Part shown: positions 2,611 to 12,157 of the stretch, piece by piece
How the letters are laid out: each line of letters begins with the position of its first letter
How positions within the stretch are numbered: the stretch's first letter is position 1
Assembly (NCBI GenBank): GCA_963785725.1
Contig: CAWAWS010000038.1
Coordinates: forward strand, 19,397 to 83,396
Origin: an uncultured delta proteobacterium
GTDB lineage: Bacteria > Myxococcota_A > Polyangia > Palsa-1104
Reading direction: 5' to 3'
DNA length: 64,000 bases
Position numbers and translations under genes: made by a program
The notes under the pieces: model-generated
Databases searched by the model: none
What the model was told of the DNA's origin: nothing
Seen by the model: the letters and a program-made list of their open reading frames with translations, nothing else

Positions 2611-3927
2611 ATGACGCCGACCGCGCTGAAAAGGCGCGACCGCTAGCTGACGCAGTTCCTGGACGAGATGATCATCGGTGTGGGCCGGCCGGAACGCCGG
2701 TCCGCGATGGCGCACTACATCACGGAGCTACTGCCCGACGGCGAGCGCAAGAGCGTGCAACCGATGGCGACGCGGCTCTCTGCTAACGCGGCCGAGGCAG
2801 ACGCCATGCGGCAGCGACTGCAAGATTGCGTCGGTGTCGGCTCGTGGTCGGACGAGGAAATGTTGCGTCGATGGGCCACGAAGCTCGAGCGCGAACTGCC
2901 GGGCATCGTTGCCTTCGTCGTCGATGACACGGGATTCGCGAAGAAGGGCGAATACTCCGTCGGCGTCACGAGACAATATTCAGGAACTCTCGGACGGACC
3001 GACAACTGCCAGGTCGCGGTGAGCCTTCATTTGGCCAGCGCCAAAGGCAGTGGCTGCATCGCCATGCGTCTGTATCTTCCGAGAAAGACTGGACATTCTA
3101 CGCTAACCGACGGCGGCAGCTGGCGTTCCGCAAAAAGTTCAGTTTCAAACGAAGTTGCAGATCGCGCTTGAGCAGCTCGATGTCGCGCTGGCGGCAGGTG
3201 TTCGCCGACATACGCCGCTCGCCGACACCGGCTATGGAGAGGCTACAGAGTTCCGCGGCGGTCTCGAAGAACGCGGGCTTCATTGCGTCGTCGGCGTCTC
3301 AGGCGTGCCGACCATTTGGCGGCCGGGCATCGCGCCCGGTGTGCCAGATGCGCCGAAGTCTGGACGACCTCCGTCGCGCCCCAAAGCCGAAGAAGCCTCG
3401 ATTTTCTTGAGCGACTTTGCTCGCGAGCTCGGCGCCAAACAATTTCGTGCCGTGAGCTGGCGCGAAGGTAGCAAAGGCCGAATGAACGGTCGCTTTTACG
3501 CCGCTCGCATCTATTCGGCCGAACGGCTAACCAAGAAGACACGACCCGAGCTCAAGCCATTTGGCTCATCATCGATACACCGGCGAAGAGAAGCGACCGT
3601 TCAAGTTCTACTTCTCGAATCTTCCCGAGAGCACGTCGCTCAAACGGCTGGTCGCGCTCATCAAGCTTCGTTGGCGTGTCGAACGCGACTATCAAGATCT
3701 CAAAGGCGAGATCGGCCTCGACCACTTCGAAGGACGCAATTGGCGCGGATTCCATCACCTCGCGACATTGTGCGCGGTCGCTCACGGCTTCCTCGCCCTT
3801 CGCCGGACGCTTTTCCCCCCGGAGCCAAGTGCAATGGACGTTGCCGCAGGTGCGCCATCACCTGCAGCAGGTGCTGCTGATGCGGATCGGATGGTGTCCG
3901 CCGTGCGCCAGACCAGCGGATAGATGA
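2611..3927 (+). mobile_element. IS701-family transposase pseudogene
   Basis: Fragments carry IS701 motifs (ERKSVQPMA, VDDTGFAKKG, SVGVTRQYSGTLGRTDNCQVAVSL, ADTGYG, RWRVERDYQDLKGEIGLDHFEGRNWRGFHH). In-frame TAG at 2644-2646 and several frame changes. No clean terminal inverted repeats identified. Confidence 0.9.
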
Positions 3928-4145: not shown

Positions 4146-4934
4146 TCAGCGTTCGACGGCTTGCAGCAATCGATCGGTCTCGCGGGTCGTCTGGCGCACG
4201 GCCTCGACGCCGTCGAGCAGCTCGTCGAGCTGGCCGCTCAGCTCCGTCGGCGAGCGCATGGTCACGATCTGATCCGCGAGCAGCCGGAACGTGTTCTCGA
4301 TGAGCTCGAGCTGCCCGCGCGCCGACGACAAATAGCTGCGAATCTCGGCGTATTTTTCTTTGCGCTTCTCGAGCACGGCGATGTTCTTTTGCGCCAGCTG
4401 CCGCTTATCGGGCTCGTTCCTGTCGACGATCGCGTGGTAGCGCCGCAGATCGCGCTCGATTTCGTCGAGGTCGACCGAGCGCAGATAGTCCTGATAGCGC
4501 GCGCACGTCACCGACAGCTCGACGAAGGCGCGCACCAAATCGTCGAGCTTGGTGAGCTCGGCGGCGAGCAGATCGATCGTGAACGCCGGGTTGTCGCGCG
4601 CCAGCTGATTGATCTGATCTTGCTTTTCGCGCAGCGCCAAGCAGCGCATCCGGTCGGCTTCCGGCAGCAGCTTGAACTTGGCGTCCAGCTCGGCGCGGCG
4701 CGCGACCTCCTGCTCGTCGGCGAAGCGCTTGTCGAACCAAGTCTTGCGCAGGAGGCGCGAGTCGGGCGCGAACAGCATCCACAACGCCTCGACGCCGGCG
4801 CCGCACAGGCCCAGCCACCAATTGCCGGTCAGCGCCGCCGCCGACGCGAACCCGCCCAACACGGCATAGTTATAAGGATTCTTGAACGCGTATTTCGCGT
4901 ACGGCGGCCGCGGCTTTTCGTCCTTCGAGCTCAT
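4146..4934 (-). CDS. Hypothetical protein, N-terminal TM hairpin plus long helical/coiled-coil domain
   Basis: Probable start MSSKDEKP. Hydrophobic segment YAVLGGFASAAALTGNWWLGLCGAGVEALWMLF, then heptad-rich helices. Last gene of a tight operon. Confidence 0.8.
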   Translation of the reverse strand: MSSKDEKPRPPYAKYAFKNPYNYAVLGGFASAAALTGNWWLGLCGAGVEALWMLFAPDSRLLRKTWFDKRFADEQEVARRAELDAKFKLLPEADRMRCLALREKQDQINQLARDNPAFTIDLLAAELTKLDDLVRAFVELSVTCARYQDYLRSVDLDEIERDLRRYHAIVDRNEPDKRQLAQKNIAVLEKRKEKYAEIRSYLSSARGQLELIENTFRLLADQIVTMRSPTELSGQLDELLDGVEAVRQTTRETDRLLQAVER

Positions 4935-4944
4935 CGGTCCGCGC

Positions 4945-5769
4945 TCATTCTTTGCGATAGAGTAAATCGAGCAGGTGCTGCTCGACATCGCGAAATTCGG
5001 GTTTCGACTTCAGCGCCAAATCACGCTCGGTAAAATGCGGGATTTCGATGCGATGGAGTATCTGCGCCGGCCGTTTCGACAACACCAACACGGTGTCCGC
5101 CAAATAGACCGCTTCGGCGACGTCATGCGTCACGAATAGAATCGTATTGTCTTCGGCGCGCGAAATATCGATGAGCAGACCTTGCATGCCCCAGCGCGTC
5201 GACGGATCGAGCGCACCGAACGGCTCGTCCATCAACAACAGCTTCGGCTGATTGATGAGCGTCCGCGCGATGGCGACGCGCTGCTTCATGCCGCCCGACA
5301 ACTCGCGCGGATATTTGCGCGCCGAATCCTCGAGACCGACCGCTTTGAGATATTTCGCGGCCTGGGCGGCGCGTTCCTCGGCGCCGATTCCGCGGAGCTT
5401 GAGGCCATATTCGACGTTCTGTTGCACGGTGAGCCAGCCGAACGACGTGTATTGCTGAAAGACCATGCCGCGATCGCGGCCGACGCCGTGAACGGGCACG
5501 CCGTCGAGCAATATCTCGCCTTTGGTCGGTGGCAACAGTCCGGCGACGGCTTTCAAGATCGTCGATTTGCCGCACCCGCTCGGCCCCAAAAAGACGACGA
5601 CCTCGCCGATTCCCGGCTTGTCGGCGATATCGAACTCGACGCCGCGCACGGCTTCCACGTCGTCGCCGGATTGCGAGCGATAGACGACGTGCAGATCTTT
5701 GACCTGCAATTTCGGCACGGCGCCGCTCGTCAACGTCGACGAGCCGTCCGTCTTTGCCGCTTCGGTCAT
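4945..5769 (-). CDS. ABC transporter ATP-binding protein, NitT/TauT (SsuB/TauB-like)
   Basis: Walker A GPSGCGKST, signature LSGGMKQR, LLLMDEPFGALD, VTHD. ATG overlaps the permease stop (ATGA). Confidence 0.95.
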   Translation of the reverse strand: MTEAAKTDGSSTLTSGAVPKLQVKDLHVVYRSQSGDDVEAVRGVEFDIADKPGIGEVVVFLGPSGCGKSTILKAVAGLLPPTKGEILLDGVPVHGVGRDRGMVFQQYTSFGWLTVQQNVEYGLKLRGIGAEERAAQAAKYLKAVGLEDSARKYPRELSGGMKQRVAIARTLINQPKLLLMDEPFGALDPSTRWGMQGLLIDISRAEDNTILFVTHDVAEAVYLADTVLVLSKRPAQILHRIEIPHFTERDLALKSKPEFRDVEQHLLDLLYRKE

Positions 5770-6659
5770 GACGGCTCCGTTTCGCGCCAGCTGAACAGCG
5801 CGCGATTCAGGCCGCGAATAATGGCGTCGGTAATCAAGCCGATGAGCCCGATAATCAAGATTCCGGAGAATACTTGCGCCGTCTTCAAGTGCGAGCCGGC
5901 CAATTGAATCATATAGCCGATACCTTGCCGCGCGTTGACGAACTCGGCCAAGATGACGTACGTCCACGAGATCGCGTTCATGACGCGAAATGAATCGAAG
6001 ATATCGGGTAATGCGGCCGGAATCAGCACCGTGCGAATGACCTGAAAGCGGCTCGCGCCCAACGTCAACGCCGTCTGCACCAGCTCTTCGGGCACCGCGC
6101 GAATGGCCGTGACGACGACCGGCAGCAGATAAACGAATACGCCGAGAAAGAGAAACGCGATCTTCTGCGATTCGCCGATACCGAGCCAGAGAATCAATAA
6201 CGGAATGAATGCCGAGATCGGCATATAACGGAGCGGCGCCATCACCGGCTCCATCAAACGATTGATGGGCTCGAACGCGCCCATCAGGATGCCGAGCGGC
6301 AAGGCGACGAGCGCGGCGGCGACGAAAGAAATGAGTATGCGCAGCGTCGACGCCTGAATGGCCTCGAAGAGCGTGTGCTCGAAGATCATCTGCAGCGTCG
6401 CCTGCAAGACCGCGATCGGCGACGGCAGGAACAGCTCGCTCACGATCGGATGCGCGCCCAGCGTCAGCGCGCACCAGACGATGACGACCAGCGCCGGCAT
6501 CCCGAGCGCGAACGGCAGCCGCAAGCGCCTCGGCAACGCCTTGCGCAGCGACCAGATCGACTCCGGGCTGCGCTTCGCCGCCGCCGTGACCACCGGCTGC
6601 GGCGCCGCCGCGGGCGGCTTCGAGAGCGGCCCGGGCGGCGGAATAGCCTCATTCGCCAT
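5766..6659 (-). CDS. ABC transporter permease, NitT/TauT (SsuC/TauC-like)
   Basis: FLPSP motif, EAA-loop LVQTALTLGAS, ILAEF, GIGYMI, multiple TM segments. Confidence 0.95.
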   Translation of the reverse strand: MANEAIPPPGPLSKPPAAAPQPVVTAAAKRSPESIWSLRKALPRRLRLPFALGMPALVVIVWCALTLGAHPIVSELFLPSPIAVLQATLQMIFEHTLFEAIQASTLRILISFVAAALVALPLGILMGAFEPINRLMEPVMAPLRYMPISAFIPLLILWLGIGESQKIAFLFLGVFVYLLPVVVTAIRAVPEELVQTALTLGASRFQVIRTVLIPAALPDIFDSFRVMNAISWTYVILAEFVNARQGIGYMIQLAGSHLKTAQVFSGILIIGLIGLITDAIIRGLNRALFSWRETEPS

Positions 6660-8318
6660 TATTGCGCGTTCAAGACGACTTTGATGTCGGTGCGGCGATT
6701 CTGCTGACGGCCCGCTTCGGTATCGTTGGACGCGACCGGCATATCCGAGCCGTGGCCGATCGTTTGAAAACGCGCGTCGGGAATATTGAAATGATCGACG
6801 AGATATTTACGCACCGAATCGGCGCGCTTCTCCGACAGCGAGCGATTGAGCTTCGCCGAGCCCTTGGCGTCGGTATTACCTTCGATACGCAAGAACGTAT
6901 TGCCGAACGCCGTCATGGTATCGCCCAGCGAATCGAGCGTGAAATAGCTGCCGTTCATGATCTCGTCGCTGCCGGGCGTGAAATAGATCGACAACGACTT
7001 ATTCACGATGGCGCGCGCCTGCGGATTCTTCGCCTCTTTCGGGTCGAAGCGGAACGGCTCGACCACCTTTTGGCCTTGATATTGATCGGCCAGCGCGGCG
7101 ACGAAACGCGTATCGACATAATCCTTGGAATCGATCGCCTTCGATATCACGCCCTCTTTACGCCAAACGATGAAGGCGGTGTCGAATAGGCTGCGAAACT
7201 GCGCATGATCGCCGGCGCCGGTGAGCCCGAAGAACAGCGCGTTGTCGGCGAACGGCGTCAGCTTCAGGCCCGAGAGCATGCCGCTGATATCGTCGGGACC
7301 GAGCTTGAGCGCCTTCGCCGTCACCGCGTAGCTGCCCGACGGATCTTTGGCGATCGCGTCGATGCCGTCGAACCAGCCGTGCACGAAGTCGCGCAAGCGT
7401 CGTCGGCGCTTTGTCGATGACCTCTTGCCGCGCGACCAAGCAGTCGGCGATGACGTTCGTCGCCGCCGCCGTCGACACGAGCACGTGCGCTTCGTCTTCG
7501 CGCGCTTTGACGGCGCCCGACAGATCCGGCTCCCACGTCACGGCGGCGTCGACCTTCTTGGCCTTGAACGCCGCCGCCGCCAACGGCGCTTCCGCCGTGA
7601 AAACGAGCTTCTTCTCGATGTCCTTCTTGTCTTCGGGCGTCAATCCCGACTGCGACAACAGATAGAGCAGCAGCCAATGCGACGGCGTATAGCGCGTCGT
7701 CGCGATCGTCTTGCCCTTCAGATCCTCGACGGAGTTGATGGTCTTGAGCGACGCGATGCCGTCGCCGCCGCGCGACCAATCCTGCTGAATGATCGCCTTG
7801 GCCGGGATATTCTGCTCCGCCAACGTCGACGCCTCGCGCGCCCAACTATCGACGGTGTCCCACATGATATCGATATCGCCTTTGACGAATGCGTTGAGCT
7901 TCGCCGCCGGATCTTCGATCAACACGAACTTCACGTCCAAGCCGTACTTCGACTTGTAAACGCCGTTCGCGTTCGGATCGAGGCCGCCGTTGCTGACGAT
8001 TCCCGGCGTGTGTCCGGCCCAGGTGTTGATGCCGACGACGAGCGTGCGCCCCAATTTTCCCGCGCCGACGTTGGCGCTGGTCACGCCGGTGACGCCTTTG
8101 TCGCGATCGGGATCGCCCGCTTTACCGAGGTTCTTGAAGTCGTCTTTGTTGATCGACGCGCCTTTGTCACCGGCGCCGCCGCCCGATTTATCGCCGGTTC
8201 CGCCGGCGCCTTTGGACCATTCCTTAATCGCGTCGCCCTTGTAGTGATAGCCCGTATAACCGAGTACGACGATGATGATAAAAGCGATGAACGCTTTCGC
8301 CAGCCCTGTCAGCTTCAC
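6659..8318 (-). CDS. SsuA/THI5-type substrate-binding protein fused to a C-terminal OmpA-like peptidoglycan-binding domain (one apparent single-base frameshift near 7397)
   Basis: N part: TM anchor, INTWAG, DWSRGGDGI, SVEDLKGKTIA, VTWEPD. C part: RDFVHGWFDG, then EGNTD...NRSLSEKRADSV...GRQQNRR. The two parts join if one C is removed in ACGACG(C)TTGCGCGAC; about 552 aa. Confidence 0.88.
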
Positions 8319-8365
8319 GATTTCCCCCGTTCGGGTTGGTACTGCGACGAAAAGCCAACGACTGC

Positions 8366-9073
8366 TTACATCGTCTTGAGCGAAGCCTTCTTCGCCGCCG
8401 ACGCGGCTTTCAATTCCGCCAATTGCTGCTTGGCCGTGACATCACCCGACTGCGCGCGCAGCGCCGACAAGCGCGAATCGAGGTCGGTCGACTTGAGCTC
8501 CGCGCCCAAGTTCGCCTCGGCGATCGTGTTCTTGATGTGCTCGCGCACGTTATCCAGCGCTTTGACTTCCGCATCGACGCTCAAGCCTTCGAGCTGATCG
8601 TTGATGCGAATACGCGCCTGCGCCGACGCCATCTTGGCCAACATGTTGTCTTTCTCGGCCTTGAGCTTCTTGATCTCGCCTTGCACCGTCATCAACGACG
8701 CCTTGGCGCTATCGGCGTCCTTCTGCGCGGTCTCGAGATCGGCTTTCAATTCGCCGACCTCTTTATCGAGAATGTTCTTCTTCTGAATCAGCACGACGGC
8801 CAAGTCGTCCTGATTGGTCTCGATCGCAACCGCGAGATCGGCGCTCACTTGCGCCAGCTCTTTCGCTTGCGTGCCGAGCCGCTCCGACACCTCTTCGCGC
8901 CGGCGAATGATCGCCGCCGTCGCCTTCTTCAGCTTCGAATACTTCTCGATCATCGAATTGATCGCGTTCTCGTACGCGATCTCCGGATGCTCCTTTTCGA
9001 GATCCGAAATCCACAGACTGACAAAGCCCTTCCAAAGGTTCGACAGACGGTTGAAGAACCCGGCCTCGGACAT
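8366..9073 (-). CDS. pspA: PspA/IM30 (bacterial ESCRT-III-like) family protein
   Basis: N-terminal amphipathic helix [20 protein letters not shown] motif, long coiled coil, C-terminal [10 protein letters not shown]; 235 aa. Confidence 0.9.
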
Positions 9074-9097
9074 GTGCGGCTCCTTGATATTCCCGCG

Positions 9098-9757
9098 TTA
9101 CGCGCCCGTTTTGGGCTCGTGCAACTTGGGTGATTGGGAAACAACGCGGGCCACCGCTTCCTGCCCGAAGAACTCCAACACCTCTTGAACCTTGAGCTTC
9201 TGCTGATTGCAGGTCTGCGTCAGCGCGTATTGCGAGGCCACTTGCGCTTCCATCGCCGTCTTCACACGCGCGATCTCCGCCTCCAGCTCGCTCATGCGCT
9301 TCTGCGATTCGGCGAGCAGCGCCTGCGTGTCGCGCTGTCCCGATTGGATATAGACCTCGAGCGCCTGAATCTCCTGCGCGCCCGCTTCGATGATTTGATC
9401 GATGGGATAACCGAACGCCTTCAACGACGCTTCGACGATCTGCTTCTTCACGTCTTTCGGCGTCTCCGCCGGCAGCGTCTTCAACAGCGTCGTCGCCTTT
9501 TCGACGCGACCTTGCTCTTCGTCGCCGAGCCCGGCGGCGCGAAACACGGCCGGGAAATCGACCTTCCCGCCTTCGGATTTCGGCAATTCGCCGGCCAGCT
9601 TCACTTCCGGCGGCGGCGCCGGCGGCTCGTCTTGCTGCGCGTACTTGGCGATGAGCGCGTCGGCCGACTCGCTCGCGGCCGCGTGCGGCGCGTCTTCGCC
9701 TTCGCGAACGACGAACCAGCCGAGGACCGTCGAGCCAAACCCTTTTTTATCCGCCAT
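9098..9757 (-). CDS. Hypothetical protein, N-terminal amphipathic helix and C-terminal coiled coil
   Basis: MADKKGFGSTVLGWFV, Pro-rich linker, helical domain and coiled coil. First gene of the pspA operon. Confidence 0.8.
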   Translation of the reverse strand: MADKKGFGSTVLGWFVVREGEDAPHAAASESADALIAKYAQQDEPPAPPPEVKLAGELPKSEGGKVDFPAVFRAAGLGDEEQGRVEKATTLLKTLPAETPKDVKKQIVEASLKAFGYPIDQIIEAGAQEIQALEVYIQSGQRDTQALLAESQKRMSELEAEIARVKTAMEAQVASQYALTQTCNQQKLKVQEVLEFFGQEAVARVVSQSPKLHEPKTGA

Positions 9758-9775
9758 GCGGCGCACAAAATAACA

Positions 9776-9809
9776 CGGCCGTCGGCGCGATACAAAACGC
9801 CGACGGCCG
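9776..9809. terminator. 12-bp perfect inverted repeat between the csbD-like gene and the pspA operon
   Basis: CGGCCGTCGGCG-N10-CGCCGACGGCCG; followed by TGTTATTTT on the minus strand. Confidence 0.55.
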
Positions 9810-9844
9810 CCGCATCTCGTCGCGATTTCGTTACCGGCTACGTG

Positions 9845-10012
9845 TCACTTCTTGAACACGTCCTTGATCCCTTGTTTGACCTCTTCGAACTTGCCTTTGA
9901 GATCGCCCTTATGCTCGTCGGCAATACCCTCGGCTTGGCGTTGGCGATCGCCGGTAATGCTGCCTACGACCTCTTTCGCCTTGCCCTTCATTTTGTCGAT
10001 CAGCTCACCCAT
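9845..10012 (-). CDS. csbD: CsbD-family general stress protein (55 aa)
   Basis: Manual translation MGELIDKMKGKAKEVVGSITGDRQRQAEGIADEHKGDLKGKFEEVKQGIKDVFKK; GGAGGAG RBS. Below the ORF-track size cutoff. Confidence 0.9.
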   Translation of the reverse strand: MGELIDKMKGKAKEVVGSITGDRQRQAEGIADEHKGDLKGKFEEVKQGIKDVFKK

Positions 10013-10162: not shown

Positions 10163-12157
10163 ATGCGCACTCCCGGTCAGGCGCCAGTGCTGCCGTCGCT
10201 GAAGGTGGCGGCCAACGTCGCATCCGATCTACGAGCCGGCACGGCGCGCGAGTGGCTCGAGACCAACGGCCTCGGCAGCTTCGCCGCCGGCACGGTCGCC
10301 GGCCCGTCGACGCGCCGCTATCACGCCATCTTGTGCGCCGCGACGCGCCCGCCGTCGGCGCGCATGGTGCTCGTCAACCGCCTCGAGGAGTTCGTCGTCC
10401 TCGATGGTACGCTGTACGAATTATCGACGAGCTTCTTCCCCGGCGCCGTGCATCCCGAGGGTTATCGCGCCATCGTCGGCTTTCGGCTCGATCCCTGGCC
10501 GACGTGGACGCTGCGCGTCGGCCCGGCGCTGCTCGAGCGCCAGCTGTTCATGCCGCACGGCCGGCAAATGACCGTCGTCACCTGGCGCATGATCGAGGCC
10601 GGCGGCAGCGGCCACGCGCGCCTGTTCGTCAAGCCGATGATATCGGGCCGCGATTATCACGCGCTCCATTTACGCAACGACGTCTTGAACCCCAACGTCT
10701 CGGGCGGCGAAGGCCTGGTCGTCCTGCGTCCTTATTCAGATGTACCGGAAACCTATATTCATCATAACGGGTTATTTCGCGCCAAACCCGATTGGTACAT
10801 GCAGTTCGAATATCCGATCGAGCACGAGCGCGGCCTCGAATCGCACGAAGATCTGTTCACGCCCGGCGAGCTGCAGTTCGACTTGACGGCGGAGACGCCG
10901 GCCGTCGCCGTCTTCTCCGTCGAGCCGCCCGGCGACGAGATCAGCGCCACCGCGCTGGCGCACGGCGAGCGCGATCGCCGCGCCGCGCTCGTCAGCGACG
11001 TCAGCGACGACTTGGAGGCGCAGCTCATGTTCGCGGGCGAGAAGTTCATCGTCCGCCGCGGCGAGCATCGCACGCTCATCGCCGGCTATCCGTGGTTCAC
11101 CGACTGGGGCCGCGACACCTTCATCGCGCTGCCCGGCCTGGCGCTGTCGACCGGCTGGCTGGCCTTGGCGCGCGAGCTCTTGCTCGCGTGGGCGCCGACC
11201 GTTCGCGACGGCCTCATCCCCAACCGCTTCAGCGACGGCAACGACCTGCCCGAATACAACTCGGTCGACGCGCCGTTGTGGTTCGTGCTCGCCGTCGCGC
11301 GCTTCGCCGACGCGCTCGAAGCGGCCGGCGGCGGCCGCGCCAGCGACGAAGATCCGTCGACCATGGCGCGCCTGCTTCCGGCCGTGCGCGCCATCATCGA
11401 CGGCTACCTCGGCGGGACGCGGCTGCACATCGGCGTCGACGACGACGGCCTCGTCCACGCCGCCGAGCCCGGTCGGCAGCTGACGTGGATGGACGCCAAA
11501 GTCGGCGATTGGGTGGTCACGCCGCGCCAAGGCAAGCCCGTCGAAATCCAGGCGCTGTGGGTCGCCGCGCTGGAAGCCACCGCTCGCCTCTGCGCCGGCG
11601 ACGACGACGGCTACGCGCACGAGCTCGGCGACCGCGCCGCCTGGGCGCGCAGCTCCTTCGCCGCTCTGTTCTGGTGCGAGGAGAAAGGCTGGCTCTACGA
11701 CGTCGTCACCGACCGCCGCCAGCGCGACGCCACGCTGCGCCCGAACCAGCTCTACGCGCTCGGCCTGACCACGCCGCTCGTCGACGCCGCCAAAGCCGAG
11801 CGCGTCCTGTCCGTGTGCGAGCGCGAGCTGGTCACGCCCGTCGGCTTACGCAGCCGCGCCCGCGGCGACGGCTACTGCCCGCGCTTCGAAGGCGACGTCC
11901 GCGCGCGCGACGCCGCCTATCACCAAGGCACCGTGTGGCCGTACCTGCTCGGCATCTACGCCGACGCCTGCCAGCGCGTGCGCGGCGCCGTGCCGCCCGG
12001 CCTGCTCGACGGCCTGCGCGCGCACTTGGGCGGCGAAGGCTTGGGCTCGCTCGCCGAAATCTTCGATGGCGACCCGCCGCATCAGCCGCGCGGCTGTCCC
12101 GCGCAAGCCTGGAGCGTCGCCGAAACCTTGCGTATCTTGCGCGCGTACGGCTGCTGA
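10163..12157 (+). CDS. Glycogen debranching enzyme / amylo-alpha-1,6-glucosidase (GDE_N plus GDE_C)
   Basis: REWLETNGLG, TRRYH, AGYPWFTDWGRDTFIALPG, LTWMDAK, RPNQL, AYHQGTVWP, GCPAQAWSVAE. Confidence 0.93.
   Translation: MRTPGQAPVLPSLKVAANVASDLRAGTAREWLETNGLGSFAAGTVAGPSTRRYHAILCAATRPPSARMVLVNRLEEFVVLDGTLYELSTSFFPGAVHPEGYRAIVGFRLDPWPTWTLRVGPALLERQLFMPHGRQMTVVTWRMIEAGGSGHARLFVKPMISGRDYHALHLRNDVLNPNVSGGEGLVVLRPYSDVPETYIHHNGLFRAKPDWYMQFEYPIEHERGLESHEDLFTPGELQFDLTAETPAVAVFSVEPPGDEISATALAHGERDRRAALVSDVSDDLEAQLMFAGEKFIVRRGEHRTLIAGYPWFTDWGRDTFIALPGLALSTGWLALARELLLAWAPTVRDGLIPNRFSDGNDLPEYNSVDAPLWFVLAVARFADALEAAGGGRASDEDPSTMARLLPAVRAIIDGYLGGTRLHIGVDDDGLVHAAEPGRQLTWMDAKVGDWVVTPRQGKPVEIQALWVAALEATARLCAGDDDGYAHELGDRAAWARSSFAALFWCEEKGWLYDVVTDRRQRDATLRPNQLYALGLTTPLVDAAKAERVLSVCERELVTPVGLRSRARGDGYCPRFEGDVRARDAAYHQGTVWPYLLGIYADACQRVRGAVPPGLLDGLRAHLGGEGLGSLAEIFDGDPPHQPRGCPAQAWSVAETLRILRAYGC

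Follow-up and report, generated by a model that had tools for sequence, protein, structure and literature searches.

A conserved six-gene pspA-transporter operon in Polyangia that resembles a published cluster, and its candidate hub protein

PspA/Vipp1 proteins polymerise on stressed membranes. The C-terminal domains of OmpA bind peptidoglycan, and NitT/TauT systems are importers of small solutes.

The closest described system is an operon reported by Ravi et al. 2024 (PMC11237479, section 18, Text S2.2, Table S3 row OGG56892.1), which has the same gene order as the locus described here plus a tandem AAA+ ATPase. Its authors proposed peptidoglycan binding by the OmpA domain and a link between the remodelling of membranes and the transport of solutes, and they left regulation unresolved. 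The system had been predicted from this DNA to be undescribed, which the earlier report contradicts. A second comparison is the mycobacterial ClgR-PspA-PspM (Rv2743c) system. According to the accessible part of that preprint (bioRxiv 10.64898/2026.09.09.750162), a membrane protein encoded with pspA maintains the membrane form of PspA. PspA-family proteins polymerise on and remodel membranes, as stated in the available portion of a 2025 review (PMC7619361), which also states that a Vps4-like ATPase appears to be absent in bacteria. No experimental work on any member of the cluster was found in the literature.

The window analysed here is a stretch of 64,000 nucleotides from an uncultured member of the Polyangia. 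The six-gene operon at 4146 to 9757 of this window is genuine and conserved. As originally predicted, the six genes are co-oriented and closely spaced, with every junction an overlap or a gap of less than 50 bp. They lie on the minus strand. The gap is 24 bp between H1 and pspA and 47 bp between pspA and the gene for the binding protein. In order of transcription, the genes are:

H1, 9757 to 9098, minus strand: open reading frame for a soluble helical protein of 219 aa, no Pfam family above cut-off
pspA, 9073 to 8366, minus strand: PspA/IM30 protein of the ESCRT-III superfamily (PF04012, E 1.3e-18)
Binding protein + OmpA, 8318 to 6659, minus strand: TM anchor, NMT1/phosphonate-binding domain and OmpA domain (PF00691), frameshifted at about 7395 to 7397
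Permease, 6659 to 5766, minus strand: NitT/TauT-type ABC permease (PF00528, E 2.6e-22)
ATPase, 5769 to 4945, minus strand: NitT/TauT-type ABC ATPase (PF00005, E 1.8e-33)
H2, 4934 (or 4988) to 4146, minus strand: protein of 262 aa with a TM hairpin and a helical bundle, no Pfam family above cut-off

No sigma-70-like promoter was found between 3800 and 10300, and no RNA data set was listed as containing this DNA. H2 is usually followed by genes for a tandem AAA+ ATPase and a TerB-like protein, which here are encoded on another contig. The original prediction missed these two followers and took the gene for the binding protein and OmpA as one frame. In this assembly, a single surplus base at about 7395 to 7397 breaks the frame of that gene. 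The base is absent from all four aligned relatives and from the contigs of runs X1 and X4 (X2 and X3 do not cover the site), and relatives encode a single protein of 547 to 561 aa. An assembly error is the probable cause of the frameshift. In the same assembly, the EF-G gene is likewise broken over several frames. The other five genes are intact and are 82 to 92% identical to those of three same-genus genomes.

The first six genes of the operon of Ravi et al. (2024) are found here in identical order, and the binding protein has the same domain make-up. Their PspA, followed by a signal/TM + PBPB + OmpA protein, a permease and an ABC ATPase, is matched gene for gene, with the fusion intact in relatives and frameshifted in this assembly. 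Their "X" gene corresponds to H1 by position. Their membrane-anchored helical protein after the ABC ATPase, the "SIG+TM+Snf7" gene, corresponds to H2 by position only. The tandem (inactive + active) AAA+ ATPase lies within their operon, whereas here it is in the genome but unlinked; it is adjacent in most relatives outside this family. The unlinked ATPase is paired here with the adjoining TerB-like gene, and "TerB" is absent from the supplement of that paper.

The transporter has the binding-domain fold family, permease type and ATPase type of TauABC/SsuABC. The Walker A, signature, Walker B and H-loop motifs were all found in the ATPase, and the best NCBIfam models for the permease are SaoP and TauC. 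However, all of the scores are under the NCBIfam cut-offs, the binding protein carries a TM anchor and an OmpA domain, and H2 follows the transporter. The closest solved structures to the TauA/SsuA/NMT1-type binding domain, which lies between the N-terminal anchor and the C-terminal peptidoglycan-binding domain, are TauA (6ssy) and SsuA (2x26). The Asp and Arg motif positions of the OmpA domain are invariant in the 19 aligned sequences. A plasmid search with the binding protein at E 1e-30 found no relative.

Judged by its sequence, the PspA of the operon belongs to a separate clade, one that occurs together with the tandem AAA+ ATPase. PF04012 matches it over model positions 2 to 217 of 220 with 67.8 bits (cut-off 33.9), and it scores far under the TIGR02977 PspA cut-off. 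Its identity is 17 to 27% with the genome's other three pspA genes and 43 to 75% with members of the clade. The AAA+ orthologue (G000:C29:9030-10877) is 54 to 74% identical to the operon-adjacent ATPases of relatives. Among 27 genomes carrying the binding-protein family, the same 19 have both the ATPase and the clade PspA genome-wide (E <1e-30) and the same 8 lack both. Archaeal and eukaryotic ESCRT-III and Vps4 likewise combine a polymer former of the ESCRT-III superfamily with a co-inherited classical AAA+ ATPase. The present ATPase differs from this pattern: its single Pfam AAA match falls in the C-terminal half, the N-terminal part is degenerate, and the Pfam scan found no MIT domain. The ATPase is also in trans in same-genus relatives. 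In one relative (G002), H2 and the AAA match share a contig but are about 590 kb apart, so the split is genuine and not an artefact of contig breaks. A broken IS701-type transposase lies 250 bp downstream of the cluster. It is an unlikely source of the split, because the ATPase is on other contigs in same-genus genomes too. The predicted lack of a pspC partner, which sets the locus apart from the classical psp system (pspF-ABC), agrees with the absence of any match to PF04024 in this genome (G000, 88% complete; the control was matched in 7 of 14). Viral contigs searched with the PspA alignment (one pattern) yielded no relative.

H2 has a hydrophobic helical hairpin at residues 20 to 58, the hydropathy peak, and a predicted cytoplasmic helical bundle. 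With a start at the upstream ATG (4988), the protein would be 18 residues longer. The model has a mean pLDDT of 94 and a pTM of 0.84. HMM, profile and fold searches failed to reproduce the published "Snf7" label, which needs re-examination. Across 85 members, any one Pfam family matched at most six. PF03357 (Snf7) had no match to H2 even at E 10, and hhalign of the H2 and PspA alignments gave a probability of less than 1%, two tests that very remote homology could escape. The best fold matches in VIA (Z 9.5 to 10.8) are generic helical bundles including BAR/F-BAR, such as 4wpc (Z 10.8, rmsd 4.2, 141 aligned). Foldseek found no match at E 0.001, and the best match of a PDB profile search was only E 0.024. 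No PspA, Vipp1 or CHMP chain was among the fold matches listed for H2, and the fold could still be shared. Cluster look-ups from 20 H2 homologues did not reach OGG56892.1. Two other identities were tried with no profile match. PF10112 (XpaC/Halogen_Hydrol) had no match at the H2 loci of five genomes, and PF25587 (PspM/Rv2743c) had none to H2 at E 10 or to its paralogues in five genomes. The nearest named cluster in the ESM Atlas is the Rv2743c family (score 0.87, 183 of 256 features, the family on 40% of members). Both systems pair a membrane protein with pspA, but the operon lacks ClgR, and PspM systems, as far as the accessible part of the preprint goes, lack the ABC transporter. The likeness of H2 to PspM is best taken as a functional analogy and not as a claim of homology.

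H1 has a short amphipathic-looking N-terminal segment, a low-complexity linker, three short helices and a long helix (residues 119 to 197). The mean pLDDT of its model is 76, with the N-terminal 31 residues below 50. Homologues were 2426 among 8000 scored, and distant relatives were aligned at 13 to 21% identity. Fold searches returned generic coiled-coil matches only, with no PspA, Vipp1 or CHMP chain among the matches listed, although the fold could still be shared. The profile probability against PspA is about 1%.

The gene order is well kept among relatives, which are related genomes, so that the counts are not independent events. The full six-gene order was found in 17 of 20 loci of close relatives; two of the others run off the end of a contig and one has no H1. 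Of 80 AAA-anchored loci, 34 had too little flank and were left out; in 36 of the 46 with 7 kb or more upstream, from Polyangia and Acidobacteriota, all six genes precede the AAA+ gene. The Acidobacteriota were counted from such loci only, and their counts are thus biased towards AAA-bearing clusters. A close binding protein is present in 36 of 60 relatives; H2 accompanies it in every one of these and the ATPase in 35. In the phylum sample anchored on the binding protein, H2 comes directly after the ABC ATPase in all 26 assessable loci and pspA is adjacent in 9 of 24. H1 was counted in 14 of 24, a figure that is partly circular since its profile was built partly from the loci scored. H2 thus tracks the transporter more tightly than it tracks pspA. 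The identities of PspA and H2 correlate across pairs (r = 0.88, 57 loci), which is not counted as support because shared ancestry accounts for it.

These counts bear on the role of the two helical proteins, which the original prediction regarded as membrane adaptors for PspA. This is not simply so. They are common to the transporter and the PspA-AAA+ parts, because pspA is adjacent in a minority of loci, H2 is adjacent in all, and clade PspA is nevertheless present in 19 of the 27 genomes. On whether the ABC genes usually occur without pspA and the two hypothetical genes, the pspA count speaks against the prediction and the H2 count for it. The binding of the helical proteins to PspA, the recapture of leaked solutes and a part in phage or predation responses, as also suggested by the prediction, are hypothetical.

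The operon is the Polyangia form of the published PspA-transporter cluster, and it has about an even chance (roughly 0.5) of working as a membrane-repair machine in which the tandem AAA+ ATPase would recycle PspA polymers and H2 would hold them at the putatively wall-tethered ABC importer. The clade PspA would polymerise at the stressed membrane, and the ATPase may act on these polymers as Vps4 acts on ESCRT-III. H2, together with H1, could physically link the PspA-AAA+ half to the transporter half. In this arrangement, H2 would hold PspA at the importer, which possibly takes in a small polar solute under envelope stress. Against this reading are the low adjacency of pspA, the 8 genomes that keep transporter and H2 but have neither clade PspA nor AAA+, the lack of detectable similarity of H2 to Snf7 or PspA, and the statement on Vps4-like ATPases in the available portion of the 2025 review. 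The prediction of a complex between PspA and H2 (57-row alignments, without folded controls) scored 0.00 against a mark of 0.32 and weighs neither way. A bolder form of the proposal is a complete bacterial ESCRT-like cycle. Here the tandem AAA+ motor would disassemble polymers of the PspA clade, and H2, a family of its own with a BAR-like bundle and not Snf7, would position them and couple them to the wall-tethered ABC complex, in such a way that damage to the wall or a flux of solutes sets off local membrane remodelling. This should be regarded as tentative and rather doubtful.

The repair reading has one serious competitor, which is possible though clearly the less probable of the two. The core would be a module that takes up or senses a solute (H1, the binding protein with OmpA, permease, ATPase and H2) in a response to toxic-anion or metabolite stress, and PspA and AAA+ would be a frequent but dispensable add-on. 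PspA is indeed dispensable for keeping the transporter and H2, because both are retained in 8 of 27 genomes that have neither clade PspA nor AAA+, among them the single-contig genome G293. Two to four other pspA matches occur in each of five of these genomes that were checked, and it is possible that another pspA substitutes. The TerB-like gene beside the ATPase also fits the module, as do the flanks of pspA-less loci, which carry a SAM methyltransferase (L178, L198, L201) or a conserved His/Glu-rich protein (L216 to L219, L222) that had no match at E 1 in a PDB profile search. At L172, binding-protein and vWA genes stand on either side of a distant H2-like gene. However, the PspA clade is kept in trans in 19 of the 27 genomes, and H1-PspA-H2-AAA survives without the transporter, so H2 has a role independent of import. 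H2 stays with PspA and AAA+ without an adjacent transporter at L182, L143, L106 and L177, and no close permease was found in G016 and G035 (both 96% complete). At L090 and L161, the usual transporter is replaced by a distantly related binding-protein-OmpA transporter, and G052 keeps two incomplete clusters, both of which have an H1 and an H2 of their own.

It is unlikely that the transporter is mainly a mechanical or chemical sensor, whose binding protein spans from the inner membrane to the wall and signals separation or wall damage to the ATPase, upon which H2 recruits PspA. The TM anchor and OmpA domain are kept although the binding domains are only about 30 to 40% identical, and H2 accompanies OmpA-fused binding proteins and is absent from all six loci with an OmpA-free binding protein. 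Over the first 24 residues, identity to four of five stand-alone paralogues is 54 to 62% (29% to the fifth), compared with 33 to 39% for the binding domain, which fits a docking helix. However, hydrophobic composition can inflate such TM figures, and three remoter members lack the motif (12 to 25% identity). The permease and ATPase resemble ordinary NitT/TauT importer parts, and binding-domain residues on the pocket side are conserved.

Two further explanations are very improbable. PspA is generally linked to phage-induced membrane stress, which could suggest an anti-phage or anti-predation defence system, but PADLOC matched only generic OmpA/MotB, ABC and AAA domains and nothing in H1, PspA, permease or H2, and retention of the cluster within the order is near-universal, unlike the patchy distribution typical of defence systems. 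A plain nutrient importer beside pspA by chance, or a decaying cluster, could account for the frameshift, the lost AAA+ neighbour and the downstream IS701-type remnant, but the order is kept in two phyla, the other five genes are intact, the extra base is missing from independent contigs, EF-G is also multi-frame in this assembly, and same-genus relatives too have the ATPase in trans. The original view of the cluster as a conserved unit of function is borne out, and a plain importer of nutrients is improbable, but the cluster had already been described.

The locus adds little as a discovery, because the operon type is already in print. What is new here is that H2 is tied to the transporter more closely than to pspA and persists with PspA and AAA+ after the transporter is lost; for this reason, H2 looks like a candidate hub between the two halves. 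The natural splits show PspA and AAA+ inherited together and H2 as the sole part kept with both halves, and they tell an experimenter which pairs to test first. Clusters of this type offer a direct candidate for testing how PspA polymers of bacteria are disassembled and targeted.

Six minus-strand genes fill positions 4146-9757. They overlap or are separated by 24, 47 and 10 bp, within the under-50-bp spacing given in the original prediction. Pfam and NCBIfam assigned families to PspA/IM30, an NMT1/SsuA-type binding domain, an OmpA domain, a permease and an ABC ATPase, while no family was found in them for the first and last proteins, H1 and H2. The predicted gene identities were supported for the five assigned parts. 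The binding-protein gene is split here by one extra base near 7395-7397. That base is missing from all four relatives aligned and from contigs of two further runs; the other two of the four runs had no coverage there. The EF-G gene of the same assembly (locus L061, 3692-6167) is also broken into several frames, which suggests indel errors in the assembly. For these reasons the frameshift is probably an assembly error. Judging by the names of homologues, the DNA belongs to Polyangia (Myxococcota). The genes of interest are the following.

2668-3900, plus strand: IS701-type DDE transposase (PF13546), split over two or more frames and running towards the operon, 250 bp past H2
4146-4934, minus strand: H2, transmembrane-hairpin protein, last operon gene
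9098-9757, minus strand: H1, helical protein, first operon gene
9775-9810: terminator-like hairpin of 14 pairs, after the CsbD-like gene
9845-10012, minus strand: CsbD-like general stress gene (PF05532), 55 aa, upstream of H1
10163-12157, plus strand: archaeal-type glycogen debranching enzyme (TIGR01561), transcribed away from the operon
L061 8031-10348 (source genome, contig C29, not the operon's): tandem AAA+ ATPase gene, then TerB-like gene
Source genome, contigs C7, C39 and C26: three further pspA genes, in contexts unrelated to the operon

The glycogen debranching enzyme gene adjoins the operon in several same-family genomes too.

The system had been proposed as undescribed. This does not hold, since an operon type with the same gene order plus one further gene has been described in silico (Ravi et al., 2024; PMC11237479). 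No experimental study of operon members was found in the literature covered, most subscription papers lying outside it. The operon is real and conserved and belongs to this described type, with its AAA+ gene relocated outside the operon. In many relatives, H2 is followed by genes for the tandem AAA+ ATPase and a TerB-like protein. The AAA+ gene was found in 11 of 14 same-family genomes, mostly on a contig separate from the operon, and in one (G002) about 590 kb separate it from H2 on a single contig. A close binding protein is present in 36 of 60 relatives; H2 accompanies it in all 36 and the AAA+ gene in 35, the sole exception being a genome 76% complete. TerB-PspA-AAA+ triads without the transporter also occur (L257-L259, L265). 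At L197 and L204, a conserved 95-aa protein without a Pfam match lies downstream of the AAA+ gene, at the place of the TerB-like gene in other types.

When loci were anchored on the AAA+ gene and required to have 7 kb or more of upstream flank (34 shorter loci being excluded), 36 of 46 carry all six genes; this and the other co-occurrence counts are a pattern rather than a statistical test, the genomes being related and many incomplete. A survey anchored on the binding domain covered 300 genomes of the phylum, gave matches in 46 other genomes, and 40 stretches were fetched, 27 of which unite binding protein, OmpA domain, permease and ATPase. The expected co-occurrence of all six genes was borne out for H2, which directly follows the transporter in 26/26 loci with enough flank, but pspA adjoins it in only 9/24, the AAA+ gene being present in all nine. 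H2 was found in none of six loci with an OmpA-less binding protein. Next, a set of 27 genomes, selected because pspA or AAA+ was not seen beside the binding protein, was searched for both. The AAA+ gene and the operon's type of PspA were both present in the same 19 and both missed in the same eight; other pspA genes occur in five of these eight (five checked). Identity to the PspA of the window is 43-49% for the unlinked PspAs, versus 17-27% for the source genome's own paralogues. Conversely, H1, PspA, H2 and AAA+ occur without an adjoining transporter at L182, L143, L106 and L177, and a close permease is missing from two 96%-complete genomes. At L090 and L161, the transporter's place is occupied by a distantly related subfamily of the binding protein (hhalign E 3.6e-4), which has its own permease and ATPase. 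Because PspA/AAA+ and the transporter are each found apart from the other, and H2 with either, two units exist: PspA-AAA+(-TerB) and the wall-tethered transporter, with H2, usually together with H1, kept with both.

The closest structures to the binding domain are TauA and SsuA, although it scores below every family cut-off. The OmpA motif residues are conserved. Since the N-terminal transmembrane segment is better conserved than the binding domain in 4/5 stand-alone paralogues, it may have a docking role. Such binding-protein-OmpA paralogues (L041-L058, L080), about 36% identical and with no ABC genes adjoining, often adjoin an MFS/POT transporter or alkaline-phosphatase-superfamily gene, and most retain the same transmembrane motif.

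The high-confidence model of H2 consists of a hairpin of hydrophobic helices plus a helical bundle. Profiles of Snf7, PspA, PspM and XpaC did not match it, and its fold matches are generic bundles, including BAR and F-BAR, at Z in a range deemed unreliable for helical proteins. The Rv2743c (PspM) cluster was an Atlas lead (score 0.87), and a lead only. According to a preprint, PspM of M. smegmatis contributes to keeping one PspA form membrane-located (bioRxiv 10.64898/2026.09.09.750162). H1 has a long helix, a poorly predicted N-terminus and no transmembrane segment, and belongs to a wide and divergent family.

Other genes adjoin related clusters. Downstream of H2 at L216-L219 and L222 is a conserved protein of about 280 aa with many invariant His/Glu/Asp, which has no match in Pfam or PDB and may resemble a di-metal oxidase. 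A PrmA/PRMT-like SAM methyltransferase adjoins H1-transporter-H2 clusters at L178, L198 and L201, in whose genomes the operon's type of PspA and the AAA+ gene were not found. At L172 (5035-8689), a distant H2-like gene has a binding-protein-vWA fusion on one side and another binding protein on the other.

Membrane repair, in which PspA, AAA+, H2/H1 and the wall-fixed importer would work together, is the most likely reading, with a probability of about 0.5. PspA would coat the stressed inner membrane and be recycled by AAA+, H2 and H1 would keep it at the transporter fixed between membrane and wall, and the transporter would import a small solute. The data show the anatomy and the co-inheritance of the parts, and all interactions are inferred. 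A stress module centred on the transporter, with PspA as an add-on, is a possible but less probable reading, and a transporter that senses wall damage is unlikely. A chance neighbourhood or decaying cluster is very improbable, as is a phage defence system. The natural splits of the operon sharpen the choice of experiments on its parts.
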